From Escherichia coli (GTDB lineage: Bacteria; Pseudomonadota; Gammaproteobacteria; Enterobacterales; Enterobacteriaceae), in the NCBI RefSeq assembly GCF_030013205.1, contig NZ_CP122648.1: DNA of 64,000 nucleotides, one strand, 5' to 3'. Made by a program: the position numbers. This document shows, in pieces, positions 36,001-42,000 of the stretch (position 1 is the stretch's first letter; each line of letters starts with the position of its first letter).

Positions 36001-39000
36001 GAGCGATGACCTGCGCCATGATCTGTTTGACCAGTTCATTGCTGCTCATGGGTTAATTCCCTTTGGTAAGATTTTTTCGACATCGGTATGTGGGCGGGGA
36101 ATAACATGTACGGCTTTTACTTCGCCGACGTTACGCGCAGCTGCGGCACCTGCGTCTGTTGCCGCTTTTACCGCCCCGACATCACCACGAACGATGACGG
36201 TCACCAGCCCGGAACCTATTTTTTCGTAGCCGACCAGCAAAACATTTGCCGACTTCACCATGGCGTCTGCGGCCTCTATGGCGGCAGTTAAGCCTTTGGT
36301 TTCTACCATTCCTAACGCTTCTTGTTGCATAAAGACCTCGCCTGGATTTTTTTGACGATATGACTATAAAAAAAAGCGAGGAAAAAGAATGGCTGACTTA
36401 ATCGGCTAATGAGAAAAATTAATAGAGAACAAATATTATAAAATTGCTTTTATGAACTATATGTTGTTAATTTATTGGTTGTTTTGTGGGTGTTTCAATG
36501 TGAATTAATTGCGTTGGCTAGTGAGTTTAATCGCGAATAATATTTCGTTGAGTTTGGTTCGAAGGAAGGAACTGTGATATTTGTTTCAATTTTATTATGT
36601 CATGATGGCAATTTTTTATTGTAAAAGTTTGGTGGAAATTATTACTTTCAACACTGATTAACGCTGTGTTGCATGATTCGGCAATGACAATAATTTGTTA
36701 TGTTAGCACGATTTTTACACGAGTCTGTCATGCATGTTGGCAATATTTTCTGCAGAGCAATTTTTTATAGTTGCGCTCGGTATACACAACAATCAGCGCA
36801 TAGTTGGCTGATAAAGAAAAACTCCGTAAAGAAGGTGTCACTATGAATGATTCACTCAAGGCGCAATGCGTTGCCGAGTTTTTAGGCACCGGACTGTTCC
36901 TCTTTTTTGGCATTGGTTGTTTGTGCGCCCTGAAAGTTGCCGGGGCAAGTCTGGGACTGTGGGAAATTTGTATCATTTGGGGGTTAGGGATTTCGCTTGC
37001 TGTTTACCTTACGGCAGGTATTTCCGGCGCTCATCTCAACCCGGCAGTTACCATTGCTCTGTGGCTGTTTGCCTCTTTCCCAGCCCGTAAAGTGCTGCCA
37101 TTTTGTGTGGCGCAATTAGCGGGTGCCTTTGGTGGTGCGGTTCTGGCATATTCTCTATACAGCAATTTGTTTATCGATTTTGAATCTGCTCACAATATGG
37201 TGCGTGGTAGTGCAGAAAGTTTACAACTCGCCAGTATCTTCAGTACTTATCCTGCAGCGGCGATTAATGTATGGCAAGCTGCGTTGGTCGAAGTGGTCAT
37301 AACGTCCATGTTAATGGGGTTGATTATGGCGTTGACCGATGACGGTAATGGCGTACCCAAAGGACCGCTTGCGCCTTTACTTATTGGTATTCTGGTTGCT
37401 GTTATTGGTGCTTCTACCGGACCATTAACCGGTTTTGCCATGAATCCAGCGCGTGATTTTGGACCTAAAATTTTCACCTGGCTTGCGGGTTGGGGGGAAA
37501 TTGCGATGACTGGTGGACGCAATATTCCTTATTTCATTGTACCCATTATTGCACCGATCATTGGGGCATGTGTTGGTGCGGCGATTTATCGCTATCTCAT
37601 TGCAAAGAATTTACCTGTCAATAGTGTAACGCCTAAAGAAATTAGCGAATAACGAAATAATCTGGCAGTTATAAACGTTTATTTTTTTACTGTTTGTGAT
37701 CTGCTTTCCGAACTTATTAAAAAGTCTCCCGCTTCACGGAGGCTTTTGTTATTGTCCTTTGTGCTTCTCGTGAGTAAATCATCAGGGATGATGTGAAGAT
37801 TAAATGTAAAACAATTGTTTTGCTATAACAATAAATTAACTGGGAGGTTTTATCATGATTTCTGCGGCGACACTTAATTCAGAACTCATTAATAAAATCG
37901 CGCAGGATTTTGCGCAGGCGACCAGCCTTGCGGTTGTCGTGGTCAATATTCACGGCGATGAAATTTCCGAGCTGTTTAACTTCACTCCATTTTGTCAGAT
38001 GATGCGGCAACACCCTCAGCTAAGCACTCGATGTCGCATGAGCGATCGTTGTGGGGGCCTGGAAGCCTCTAAATCCGATCAGCCTTGTATTTATCGCTGT
38101 CATGCCGGATTAACCGATTTCTCTATTCCACTGGTAATCGCCGGGCATTTAGTCGGTTTTGTATTGTGCGGGCAAGTTCGTCTGCGTAATGATGATGTCG
38201 ATTTGGTCGATATTCTGAATGTCGATGATTGCTGGCAGGCAGATCCCGAATTACTTAATGAATTCCGCAAAGTTCCTGAGATGGATTACTCAAGAGTTAT
38301 GGCCTCTGCTGATTTGTTGAAGTTGATTGTGGAAAATTGCCTCAAAAAACAACTCAATTTTGTGGTTATTAAAGAGAACAAATCTCAGTCAGATTCGGTG
38401 CGCCAGACTCGTGCGCCTAATCCCCACGACAATAAAATGAAAAAAGCTTTACGCTATATTGATGCGCATTTATCAGACGATTTGCGTCTGGAAGATGTCG
38501 CCTCGCACGTTTATCTAAGTCCTTATTATTTCAGTAAGTTATTCAAGAAATACCATGGAATCGGTTTTAATGCGTGGGTAAACCAACAACGGATGGCCAG
38601 CGCTCGTGAGTTACTGTGCCATAGTGACTGGAGCATCGCCAGCATTGCGCGTAATTTAGGTTTTTCGCAAACCAGTTATTTTTGCAAAGTTTTCCGTCAA
38701 ACTTATCAGGTTACGCCGCAGGTGTATCGACAGCAAGTGAGTGAAAATGCGGCGATGGAAACGGTATAGAGTAAATGCTAAAAAAAGGGAAGGTTTAAAT
38801 AAACGCTGGAATGAATAATTAACGTTATTTACGTGTTATGGGAAAAGTGAAATCAGCTCATAACATACGCTGACAGGTGTGGCACATTTGTGCCTGGGAA
38901 GAGGGTGAAAATCCCTCGCAGCCCCCGCTGCTGTAATGCTGACAAACCCGAAAATACCACTGATCGCGAGATTGGGAAGGTCGGGGGAGGATGACGCTAA

Positions 39001-42000
39001 GCCAGAAGACCAGCCTGTCAGTCAATACCAACAACTTCGGTGGGAAGTGGGTTGCCCGGAAGCGTCCGGTAGAGTACCGGCGCGTCTTTATACCCCTACC
39101 ACCCTGAAAGGATCAGGGTATGGCGGCATCATTTAGTTCTTTCATCGCAGTGCCGACAGGCACCAGGGCTGCACTTAAGGTGTGGCAATCTTGTTTCATG
39201 GCTCATCAACCAGACCGACATTACAGGAAACTAAGTGGAGGGCGAGAGGCATGAAAACGATAAAACCCGAATCGATAGCTCTTTTTTGCCTCTTATCTGG
39301 AGATGTGGACCTGGCGAAACATCTGGCTGAAATATTGCCAATAACCTGTTTTGTTGGTGAGGACTGGCAGCAAGATTTCCAGCCTCTTGACGGTGGGCCT
39401 GTGCAATCGTTATCAGATGTGTATGGCGATTATTCAGTGCTGCTATTGATAGCAGCTGAAAGCGAGATATCCGTACCAGAATGGCTCGCTCATTCTGAAG
39501 GAACGACGGTAATTGTGATTGCAGAACACAATGCCCGTTTGCTGACTGGTCCGGCTGGTGGGGCTGTAGCATTAATCCATTATCTGAATGAAATCTGTCA
39601 TTCCAGAGAAACCGCTGTCAATGACGCATTTTGTCGTACGTTAACACGAGGAAGTCTGGCTATTCCGCAATGCCATCTTCTTTCGTAATGGATTGAGAAT
39701 GCTGGATTTTTAATTGTATTACGCGCAGTATTAATCGCGTAAATGTTTTGCGGTCAGCAACGGTGGGGATCCATTGTTCTGTTCAATGAATACCATCATA
39801 CAATTGAATCAGGAGTCGGTATGATGATTTTGGTGACGGGGGGCGCACGGAGCGGGAAGAGTCGCCACGCAGAGGCGCTTATTGGGGACTCTTCACAGGT
39901 TCTGTATATCGCCACCTCTCAAATCCTTGATGATGAGATGGCTGCACGGATAGAACATCATCGGAAAGGCCGCCCGGCGCACTGGCGCACGGTGGAGCGC
40001 TGGCAACATCTTGATGAATTAATTCATGCAGACATTAACCCGCATGAAGCTGTGTTGCTGGAATGCGTTACCACAATGGTGACTAATCTGTTGTTTGATT
40101 ATGGCGGAGATAAAGACCCTGATGAATGGGATTATCAGGCGATGGAACAGGCGATTAATGCTGAGATTCAGTTGTTGATTGCTGCCTGCCAACGTTGCCC
40201 CGCGAAGATTGTATTAGTGACTAACGAAGTGGGAATGGGGATTGTGCCGGAGAGTCGTTTGGCACGACATTTTCGTGATATTGCCGGGCGGGTAAATCAG
40301 CAGCTGGCCGCTGCGGCAAATGAAGTGTGGCTGGTGGTTTCGGGTATTGGAGTAAAAATCAAATGAGTAAATTATTTTGGGCGATGCTCTCTTTTATTAC
40401 GCGTCTGCCTGTGCCGCGTCGCTGGTCCCAGGGACTGGATTTCGAGCATTATTCTCGCGGTATTATTACTTTTCCTTTAATTGGATTATTGCTTGGCGCG
40501 ATTAGCGGGCTGGTCTTCATGGTGCTGCAGGCATGGTGTGGCGTACCACTGGCGGCACTGTTTAGCGTACTTGTGCTGGCGCTTATGACCGGGGGATTCC
40601 ACCTGGACGGCCTCGCCGATACTTGTGATGGCGTATTTTCTGCACGTAGCCGCGATCGCATGTTGGAAATCATGCGTGATAGCCGTTTAGGTACCCACGG
40701 CGGTCTGGCATTGATTTTTGTTGTACTGGCAAAGATTTTGGTGTTAAGCGAGTTGGCTTTGCGTGGCGAACCGATCCTTGCATCGCTGGCGGCAGCATGC
40801 GCGGTCAGCCGCGGGACTGCCGCATTATTGATGTATCGTCATCGTTATGCCCGGGAAGAAGGGCTTGGCAATGTGTTCATTGGCAAAATTGATGGGCGAC
40901 AAACCTGCGTCACACTCGGTTTAGCCGCTATTTTTGCTGCTGTATTATTGCCAGGTATGCATGGTGTGGCTGCTATGGTGGTGACGATGGTGGCGATTTT
41001 CATCCTCGGTCAGCTTCTCAAACGTACGCTGGGCGGGCAAACCGGCGATACGCTGGGAGCAGCCATAGAGCTTGGTGAACTGGTCTTCCTGCTGGCACTG
41101 CTATAAAGAGACGTGACATGCAAACACTTGCCGATTTACTGAATACGATCCCTGCCATCGATCCTGCCGCTATGTCGCGTGCACAACGGCATATCGACGG
41201 GTTACTCAAACCTGTTGGTAGCCTGGGAAGGCTGGAGGCGCTTGCCATACAACTGGCGGGAATGCCGGGGTTGAATGGCATACCGCATGTGGGCAAAAAA
41301 GCGGTACTGGTTATGTGTGCCGATCACGGCGTCTGGGAGGAAGGGGTCGCTATTTCCCCAAAAGAAGTGACAGCCATTCAGGCTGAAAATATGACCCGCG
41401 GAACAACCGGCGTGTGTGTGCTGGCAGCACAAGCGGGCGCTAACGTCCACGTAATTGATGTTGGTATTGATACTGCTGAGCCTATCCCCGGGCTTATCAA
41501 CATGCGTGTCGCACGAGGTAGCGGCAATATTGCTTCAGCTCCGGCAATGAGTCGCCGTCAGGCTGAAAAGTTGCTTTTGGACGTCATATGTTATACGCGG
41601 GAGCTGGCAAAAAACGGTGTCACGCTGTTTGGTGTAGGTGAACTGGGGATGGCAAACACGACACCGGCAGCAGCAATAGTCAGCACAATCACTGGCCGGG
41701 ATCCTGAAGAAGTGGTTGGGATTGGCGCAAACCTGCCGACAGATAAACTGGCTAATAAAATTGATGTTGTGCGTCGGGCGATTACGTTGAATCAACCAAA
41801 TCCTCAGGATGGTGTTGATGTCCTGGCAAAAGTGGGTGGATTTGATTTGGTCGGAATAGCTGGAGTGATGTTAGGTGCTGCTTCCTGCGGTTTACCCGTG
41901 TTGCTGGATGGATTTCTTTCTTATGCTGCTGCGCTCGCAGCCTGCCAGATGTCTCCTGCAATCAAACCGTATCTCATTCCTTCTCACTTGTCGGCAGAAA

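Follow-up and report, generated by a model that had tools for sequence, protein, structure and literature searches.

Gene content of the pdu-cob locus and a cobalamin riboswitch behind pocR

The 64,000-nucleotide window analyzed here (Escherichia coli assembly GCF_030013205.1, contig NZ_CP122648.1; positions are counted from its first letter, and features lie on the plus strand unless stated otherwise) contains an adenosylcobalamin (AdoCbl) riboswitch located between pocR, which encodes an AraC-type regulator of the pdu and cob genes, and the cobinamide-salvage and nucleotide-loop-assembly genes cobUST. The list of open reading frames (ORFs) and RefSeq, for which the annotation of the E. coli CFSAN018748 chromosome was used (100% identical to the window over 38770 to 39830), give the local order as the pdu operon (minus strand), pduF, pocR, the riboswitch, a small ORF, cobU, cobS, cobT, ldtA, tRNA-Asn, nac, and cbl. 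According to both sources pocR occupies positions 37855 to 38769; the aptamer begins 88 nt past its stop codon on the same strand, and a terminator scan of the interval between them found no terminator-like site. The aptamer itself (38858 to 39032) matches RF00174 over the entire model, B12 box included (positions 1 to 189 of 189; 113.8 bits, E = 9e-28; gathering score, 31.5 bits), and RefSeq carries the same annotation. An initial annotation, made from the sequence alone, had placed an AdoCbl riboswitch right after pocR, and the covariance-model scan bears this out; of the span given there (38865 to 39742), the start lies 7 nt inside the aptamer and the end falls within the spacer between the small ORF and cobU.

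The same model scores 103 to 113 bits in every Escherichia lineage, in Enterobacteriaceae RIT691, and in Hafnia, and 106.9 bits in Salmonella. Equivalence to the Salmonella cbiA leader, likewise proposed at the outset, is supported by 83% identity over 275 to 285 nt; homology begins at approximately 38841 to 38854, spans the CUUC-GGUGG-GAAG hairpin, ATGGCGGCA, and the ribosome-binding-site (RBS) hairpin, and runs to the cbiA start codon. A 5' leader hairpin flanking the aptamer start (GTTATG ... CATAAC, 38835 to 38864), seen in the alignments, is common to the Salmonella leader. The expression platform (39033 to 39119) is identical or nearly identical to those of Salmonella and Citrobacter. 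It consists of the CUUC-GGUGG-GAAG hairpin (39035 to 39047), a variable hairpin (39054 to 39085), and the RBS hairpin CCCUGA-AAGGA-UCAGGG (39102 to 39118), which holds the Shine-Dalgarno sequence in its loop and is identical in the window and in Salmonella; in addition, GGUGGGAAGUGGG (39039 to 39051) is complementary to CCCCUACCACC (39093 to 39103), with a predicted duplex of -16.4 kcal/mol. The alignments indicate that the riboswitch is orthologous to the Salmonella cob leader and now stands in a new, reduced gene context.

The start of the leader transcript is less well marked. In an alignment of seven Escherichia lineages, which was used for all conservation analyses below, the near-invariant sequence AATAAT (38814 to 38819) is a tentative -10 box of a leader promoter; sequence conservation of the transcript starts approximately 10 to 15 nt downstream of it, and the box is promoter-like by scan in E. 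marmotae only, not in the window. Leader transcription may come from pocR or from this weak box.

Loss of the cbi block and the relics that remain

The genes cbiA to cbiP come after this leader in Salmonella, Citrobacter, Klebsiella, and Yersinia; cbiG lies approximately 6.6 kb past pocR in these genera, and cobU stands immediately behind cbiP. The cbiA-to-cbiP block places approximately 17 kb between leader and cobU in Salmonella, Citrobacter, and Klebsiella; the distance in the E. coli window is 0.7 kb. The absence of the cbi block, as first noted, was confirmed: only small ORFs lie between the leader and cobU, and a search of 5,426 complete E. coli genomes turned up no cbiH-cbiM-like DNA, which also rules out a cbi operon hidden elsewhere in E. 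coli.

What is left of cbiA is an ORF of 44 codons (cbiA', 39120 to 39254), recognized by alignment with the 5' ends of Salmonella and Citrobacter cbiA. It opens at the ancestral cbiA ATG (39120), its frame reads MAASFSSFIAVPTGTR..., and its homology to cbiA reaches approximately 39188 (codon 22 or 23, a degenerate P-loop). The TGA stop codon of cbiA' overlaps the ATG of the following ORF, cbiG', as ATGA (39251 to 39254). The 3' end of cbiF was considered as the source of positions 39189 to 39246 and rejected, since local alignments were no better than those with shuffled sequences.

The ORF cbiG' (39251 to 39688 from the ATG chosen by RefSeq; 145 aa) descends from the CbiG N-terminal domain, with residues 1 to 112 as the relic part. 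From a GTG start the same frame covers 39182 to 39688 and encodes 168 aa; a single ORF of 146 to 168 aa had been noted before cobU, and these measured lengths agree with it, the 44-codon cbiA' being present in addition. The ORF had also been taken for a possible fusion remnant of cbi genes, with CbiA and CbiP as the candidates. It is indeed a cbi remnant, but one derived from the CbiG N terminus: a blastx comparison with all Salmonella Cbi proteins matches only CbiG residues 1 to 119 (E = 5e-21), and an origin from CbiA and CbiP was dismissed. Residues 1 to 112 of cbiG' are homologous to these CbiG residues 1 to 119 with 42 to 46% identity to enterobacterial CbiG, the start codons are at the same position, and tblastn matched cbiG of approximately 50 enterobacterial loci over residues 1 to 112 (E values down to 1e-22). 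The NCBIfam model NF004463 is matched over positions 1 to 125 of 351 with 68.3 bits (E = 6.5e-19), below its equivalog cut-off of 546 bits. RefSeq names the product a "hypothetical protein" or a "cobalamin biosynthesis protein."

Although residues 1 to 34 are still approximately 70% identical to true CbiG, much of what characterizes the enzyme is gone. An internal deletion of 7 residues, evident in the alignment with CbiG, takes out much of the conserved GATGIAVRVLAPL stretch, and the second CbiG motif, VVVIDE..HVISLLSGHxGGAN, reads TVIVIAEHNARLLTGPAGGAV, with SGH(A/V/M)GGAN altered. True CbiG has the three Pfam domains CbiG_N, CbiG_mid, and CbiG_C, whereas a Pfam scan of cbiG' gave no match to these or any other domain even at E <= 10. 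Because only about a third of CbiG is left, its motifs are deleted or altered, and the middle and CobE-like C-terminal domains are missing, the predicted product cannot be a cobalt-precorrin-5A hydrolase. An AlphaFold2 (AF2) model of cbiG' is moderately confident (pLDDT, 77; pTM, 0.70); a Foldseek search of the model against the PDB gave generic alpha/beta matches only and none at E <= 0.001, and the CbiG homologue 3EEQ was reached by profile only (E = 1e-5).

The tail of cbiG' (residues 113 to 145) and the adjoining positions 39689 to 39785 show no similarity to any Salmonella cbi gene. The E. coli alleles of the relic ORFs (P0001, P0004/P0007, and P0012) include three variants. In one, cbiA' and cbiG' are fused in frame into a cbiA'::cbiG' ORF of 188 aa; others, of 136 aa, have lost 9 nt in frame (GPAGGAVAL to GPAVAL) and stop earlier; and one of 113 aa ends directly behind the segment homologous to CbiG, so that the tail seems to be dispensable. 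In a transcriptome table for E. coli LF82, a gene annotated as "CbiG" (LF82_328) is listed at 13 to 17 reads per kilobase per million (RPKM), above pocR; by its name and its position next to pocR, we take it to be cbiG'.

Immediately before cobU, the last 12 codons and stop of cbiP survive (39786 to 39824). They overlap the cobU ATG as ATGA, as in Salmonella, carry the cobU Shine-Dalgarno sequence, and have 75% invariant columns in the seven lineages; blastn homology with Salmonella sets in 31 nt before the cobU start codon, and the cbiP end was compared by eye. As originally observed, the salvage genes follow the small ORF: cobU (39821 to 40366), cobS (40363 to 41106), and cobT (41118 to 42197) are present in both the ORF list and RefSeq, and CobU is 88% identical to the structurally solved Salmonella CobU. 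Given the cbiA', cbiG', and cbiP remnants, two deletions account for the locus, one from approximately codon 22 of cbiA to just before cbiG and the other from approximately codon 120 of cbiG up to the surviving 12-codon end of cbiP. We therefore read the locus as the leader of an ancestral cob operon (cbiA to cobT) that survived two old deletions.

A hairpin followed by a U-tract inside cbiA' (39168 to 39196), found by terminator scanning, is the sole terminator-like site between 38600 and 40000 and a tentative attenuator. It arose at the deletion junction and would form when cbiA' is untranslated; stem and U-tract are kept, with one-sided changes, in most lineages. The scan found no terminator-like site from the end of this hairpin to cobU (39197 to 39820), and all parts lie on the same strand; read-through into cobUST is therefore possible.

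Selection on the leader RNA and on the relic ORFs

Within the locus, divergence is distributed very unevenly. The mean pairwise difference among the seven lineages is 0.055 in the aptamer and 0.036 in the segment containing the RBS hairpin (39086 to 39119), compared with 0.21 at third codon positions of pocR, 0.20 in the rest of cbiA', 0.20 in the spacer between the ORFs and cobU, and 0.25 in the cbiG' tail, such that aptamer, RBS hairpin, and start codon evolve approximately four times more slowly than neighboring neutral sites. Invariant columns make up 220 of 262 positions in riboswitch and platform versus 302 of 626 in the neutral proxies (Fisher p = 1.7e-24), with 95% at 39033 to 39053 and 91% at 39086 to 39119. 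Recombination of the island cannot explain this gap, because the control is local and lies within the same block. The leader RNA is thus under strong purifying selection, and the description of the riboswitch as orphaned, in the sense of decaying, does not hold for either aptamer or platform. The riboswitch appears to be a selectively maintained control element and not debris, and would presumably respond to AdoCbl.

Both ORFs and the ATGA overlap are maintained. The cbiG' frame of 144 or 145 codons is open in all 13 analyzable Escherichia lineages, the set used for ORF maintenance, and the 44-codon cbiA' with its overlap is likewise present in 13 of 13; indels in the ORFs are in frame only, with 3 nt between species and 9 nt within E. 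coli. When the observed substitutions were placed at random, the probability that all seven lineages stay stop-free was approximately 4e-6 for cbiG' and 0.03 for cbiA', values that are approximate because a star tree was assumed. The ratio of nonsynonymous to synonymous substitution rates (dN/dS) of cbiG' is 0.41 overall and 0.30 over residues 1 to 70, and three non-overlapping pairs each give a value significantly below 1 (p = 0.0002 to 0.006), although the true value may be nearer 0.5 to 0.6 because the NG86 method ignores transition bias. For cbiA' the ratio is approximately 0.65; pocR, pduF, and cobS have 0.03 to 0.05 and cobU has 0.14. An antisense ORF (39231 to 39572) was examined as a cause of the constraint and discarded, being unconserved and 13 to 107 aa long across lineages.

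Distribution in E. coli and related lineages

A census of the 5,426 complete E. coli genomes, counted per element and not cross-tabulated by genome, found the riboswitch with its leader in 644, pocR in 644, the whole block in 643, and cobU in 5,397. The equal counts suggest that the riboswitch travels with pocR and pdu. The cobUST genes can do without it, and riboswitch and salvage genes are neither inherited nor kept together.

Among pdu-negative E. coli we noted at least six different deletion or insertion sequence (IS) junctions that removed pdu, pocR, and the riboswitch, all within 39348 to 39694: 39348 (fused to pduV'), 39517 (K-12-like), 39562 (O157), 39634, 39639, and 39694. At the 39517 junction, PGAP calls a partial "cobalamin biosynthesis protein" pseudogene. 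All of these junctions leave cobU intact together with 127 nt or more of the sequence before it, and a weak promoter-like site (E. marmotae L008:6390-6418; by eye at approximately 39643 to 39671) lies just inside several of them.

The architecture is common to E. coli, divergent "E. coli," E. albertii, E. marmotae, E. whittamii, and cryptic-clade Escherichia, lineages that differ from one another by a dS of 0.3 to 0.5. Between E. albertii and E. coli, dS is 0.9 to 1.2 for cobS and ldtA and 0.3 to 0.5 from pduF through cbiG', a shift along the locus that implies recombination and suggests a boundary near cobU.

Two Hafnia lineages (H. paralvei and a second one; L059:11266-12983, L103:9697-11414, and L101:1332-2451) have pdu, pocR, the riboswitch (110 bits), a cbiA'::'cbiF fusion ORF of 115 to 118 aa, and cbiG at full length; the genes that follow are unrelated, and the locus has nothing else of the operon. 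Between these lineages the first 160 codons of cbiG have a dN/dS of 0.04, while the fusion ORF drifts (78% identity). Hafnia thus appears to hold a parallel riboswitch-cbiG remnant. A CbiH search for other cbi genes of Hafnia found Obesumbacterium and no match named Hafnia, a result that is suggestive only. The Hafnia leader ends, just before the fusion-ORF ATG, in a CCCGC-UAGAAAUG-GCGGG-UUUUUUU hairpin and U-run (L059:11540-11572), which points to a platform of the terminator type, in contrast to the RBS hairpin that Escherichia and Salmonella have. In CP043670.1 (L102:569-12387) a cbi operon is decaying in place instead of being deleted; it is fragmented into numerous short frames, with cbiA, cbiB, cbiD, cbiF, cbiG, cbiH, cbiM, and cbiQ all split.

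A proposed relay from the riboswitch and alternative explanations

We propose that the ancestral cob leader still acts as a translational switch whose signal is relayed by the relic ORFs. With AdoCbl bound, the hairpin at 39102 to 39118 would block access to the ribosome-binding site; at low AdoCbl levels, ribosomes would start at the old cbiA ATG (39120), translate the 44 codons of cbiA', terminate at the ATGA overlap, and reinitiate into cbiG'. Translation of the relic frames would keep the transcript elongating and stable, suppressing the hairpin and U-tract at 39168 to 39196 and/or Rho, and RNA polymerase coming from pocR or from the weak leader promoter would then read on into cobUST. The outcome would be a B12-repressible CbiG' and an extra, B12-repressible and pdu-linked supply of salvage enzymes on top of that from the promoter or promoters of cobU itself. 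The layout fits an upstream ORF gated by a riboswitch, with RBS hairpin and ATG together at 39102 to 39122 and a stop that overlaps the next start in all 13 lineages; cbiG' carries a GGAGG-like Shine-Dalgarno sequence of its own as well. From strand, gene order, and the absence of terminators, B12 control of cobUST through read-through is plausible, though it would not be obligatory. Taken as a whole, this account, in which we infer the ligand response, the coupling, and the effect on cobUST, has in our judgment an even chance of being correct.

Several observations weigh against it. A sigma-70 promoter scan upstream of the aptamer found none in the window and weak, chance-level matches in relatives, and the 88-nt spacer between pocR and the aptamer contains no counterpart of the Salmonella Pcob promoter and 5' leader. 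The hairpin at 39168 to 39196 is weak in two lineages and is flagged in E. coli only, not in E. albertii or E. marmotae, and a rut-like C-rich, G-poor stretch (C>G skew) is absent downstream of the switch. The start of cobU follows cbiG' after 123 to 134 untranslated nt (a spacer of 132 nt in the window), and any effect on it must therefore be transcriptional. The dN/dS of cbiG', at 0.3 to 0.5, is below what a pure translated spacer requires. In addition, 88% of E. coli genomes keep, and presumably express, cobUST without the riboswitch. E. albertii, in which cobU is heavily decayed and cobT is lacking, retains both ORFs along with the riboswitch (112.8 bits); here (L004:6436-7877) cobU consists of frameshifted fragments with 61 to 65% amino acid identity, and cobS is intact with a dN/dS of 0.03. 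Enterobacteriaceae RIT691 (L067:10967-11778) has pocR, the riboswitch (103 bits), and a single ORF in which cbiA' and cbiG' are fused in frame, but no cobUST; this ORF stops near residue 125 of CbiG, the next genes are nac and cbl, and ldtA and the tRNA are absent as well, a truncation due either to common ancestry with Escherichia or to a parallel event. Since riboswitch and ORFs are kept in both E. albertii and RIT691, selection cannot rest on cobUST alone.

A first alternative is that the selected unit consists of the riboswitch, cbiA', and cbiG', with cobUST served by their own promoters. The riboswitch would then repress, when AdoCbl is plentiful, a CbiG N-domain protein with a B12-related role, either newly gained or original, tied to pdu and pocR and outside corrin-ring synthesis. 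This explanation is compatible with the relay and differs from it in which target is selected. It is favored by the retention of riboswitch and cbiG' with a decayed cobU or with no cobUST, by the equal counts of riboswitch and pocR in E. coli, by the constraint on cbiG' (strongest over residues 1 to 70 and below neutrality in all three pairs), by the well-kept first 34 residues and the moderately confident AF2 model, and by the pocR-riboswitch-fusion-cbiG arrangement of Hafnia, where cbiG is conserved while the fusion drifts. Set against this are the deleted or substituted CbiG motifs and the missing middle and C-terminal domains, the lack of a Pfam or significant fold match, the 113-aa and 136-aa forms in some E. 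coli lineages, a dN/dS approximately 10 times that of neighboring real genes and possibly higher still after correction, and the other cbi genes that Hafnia may have elsewhere. On balance we regard it as possible but rather less than probable.

Two further explanations look away from the relic ORFs. The riboswitch could serve pocR and pdu, if ligand-dependent translation or termination downstream altered the stability or the 3' end of the pduF-pocR mRNA and so made pdu induction B12 sensitive. Its position 88 nt past the pocR stop, with neither terminator nor recognizable promoter between, and the matching counts of 644 genomes for riboswitch and pocR would suit such a role, and B12 riboswitches tune pocR or eut regulators in Listeria and Enterococcus. 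However, we know of no precedent for this mode in Enterobacteriaceae, the conserved parts (RBS hairpin, ATG, and open, coupled ORFs) form a translational platform in cis that is aimed downstream, and the LF82 "CbiG" RPKM, for a gene identified by name and position, exceeds that of pocR and suggests a separate promoter; we consider this explanation improbable. Least probable of all, and clearly disfavored, is that the whole stretch is inert, slowly decaying cbi wreckage that looks intact owing to a recent deletion or a recent spread of the pdu island in Escherichia. The near-neutral evolution of cbiA' and of the cbiG' tail and the recombination indicated by the variation of dS along the locus would agree with this, but aptamer and platform are fourfold more conserved than pocR third positions and flanking relic DNA in the same block (at the p value given above), the ORFs are open in every analyzable lineage, and the architecture is common to lineages that have diverged at synonymous sites by 0.3 to 0.5.

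Comparison with known systems

Repression of the Salmonella cob operon by B12 is reported to be translational and to need the leader together with the start of the first ORF (Richter-Dahlfors and Andersson 1992; Ravnum and Andersson 2001). The E. coli locus resembles the Salmonella cbiA leader in its place after pocR, the GGUGG-loop hairpin, the RBS hairpin with the Shine-Dalgarno sequence in its loop, and the start codon. The two differ in what follows, since the Salmonella leader gates approximately 20 biosynthetic genes, whereas the E. coli switch precedes two relic ORFs and then cobUST, and in E. coli a hairpin and U-tract lie at the deletion junction. They also differ in the spacer between pocR and aptamer, which is 325 nt in Salmonella (presumably holding the Pcob promoter and the 5' leader, the latter of approximately 468 nt) and 88 unrelated nt in E. 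coli.

The btuB riboswitch of E. coli belongs to the same Rfam family and offers a model of the route by which translational control could extend to cobUST: translational repression of btuB is reported to trigger Rho termination, with an attenuator in the early coding region. The btuB leader is a paralog, however, and stands before an intact transporter gene, while the cbiA'-cbiG' locus has no rut-like C-rich stretch. For the proposed coupling, the closest likeness is the B12 riboswitch of Mycobacterium tuberculosis ppe2, which acts via a translated upstream ORF by termination-reinitiation (Kipkorir et al. 2024, PMC11260477). An equivalent arrangement is seen in the 44-codon cbiA', which overlaps cbiG' through ATGA, although organism and riboswitch class are unrelated, and the upstream ORF of E. 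coli is a gene relic whose coupling to cbiG' is predicted. A riboswitch in front of salvage genes would have the same AdoCbl-repression logic as in other bacteria, provided that read-through occurs, but riboswitches elsewhere directly precede the salvage gene, in contrast to the 0.7 kb of relic ORFs in E. coli. Comparative genomics by Rodionov, Vitreschak, and coworkers, dating from 2003, is said to have placed B12 riboswitches upstream of cobamide salvage and nucleotide-loop genes in other bacteria, where AdoCbl reportedly represses genes of the cobU, cobS, and cobT type.

Implications

The pdu island is present in approximately 12% of complete E. coli genomes and in the other sampled Escherichia lineages, and pdu is reportedly enriched in adherent-invasive E. 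coli. Strains with pdu carry out B12-dependent propanediol catabolism in the gut without B12 synthesis, and the locus would provide them, in addition to btuB, with a second B12 sensor that selection maintains. Should this sensor tune cobinamide salvage or a protein derived from CbiG, it would be part of corrinoid budgeting during propanediol use.

More speculatively, and with considerable doubt, the CbiG N-domain may have a B12-riboswitch-controlled role outside corrin-ring synthesis that is tied to the pdu/pocR island, possibly in corrinoid handling or regulation. If so, this would explain why three lineages lost their local cbi genes yet kept pocR, the riboswitch, the first ~20 codons of cbiA, and cbiG or cbiG': Escherichia with coupled relic ORFs, RIT691 with an in-frame fusion and no cobUST, and Hafnia with full-length cbiG.

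The locus also appears to be a natural example of a riboswitch that outlived its operon, with gene relics kept open apparently to pass on a translational signal. The relic documents a Salmonella-like cob operon at this position in the Escherichia ancestor and so bears on the "loss and reacquisition" hypothesis for B12 synthesis in enterics, reportedly put forward by Lawrence and Roth, which could become testable at nucleotide resolution. Already known were the RefSeq annotation of the riboswitch, the ORF as a "hypothetical" or "cobalamin biosynthesis protein," and LF82_328 as "CbiG" in one transcriptome table; a full-text literature search found no paper describing the two relic frames or how they are coupled, the selection that acts on the leader, or the parallels in Hafnia and RIT691.

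Other features of the window

Between pduF and pocR, the small RNA STnc230 (RF02075, 69 bits) is encoded on the minus strand at 37711 to 37794, the same place as in all examined Escherichia loci and in Salmonella. A pduS-like gene for a 4Fe-4S dicluster protein (23158 to 24497, minus strand) is frameshifted according to the RefSeq record of this strain. Downstream of the third tRNA-Asn, an island (47482 to 57084) carries a frameshifted P4-type integrase gene (47719 to 48980), an EFASI RNA (50991 to 51118, minus strand), an RHS element (53020 to 57084), and a C4 antisense RNA (52552 to 52640, minus strand), which we take to be a phage immunity RNA of the P1/P7 type.

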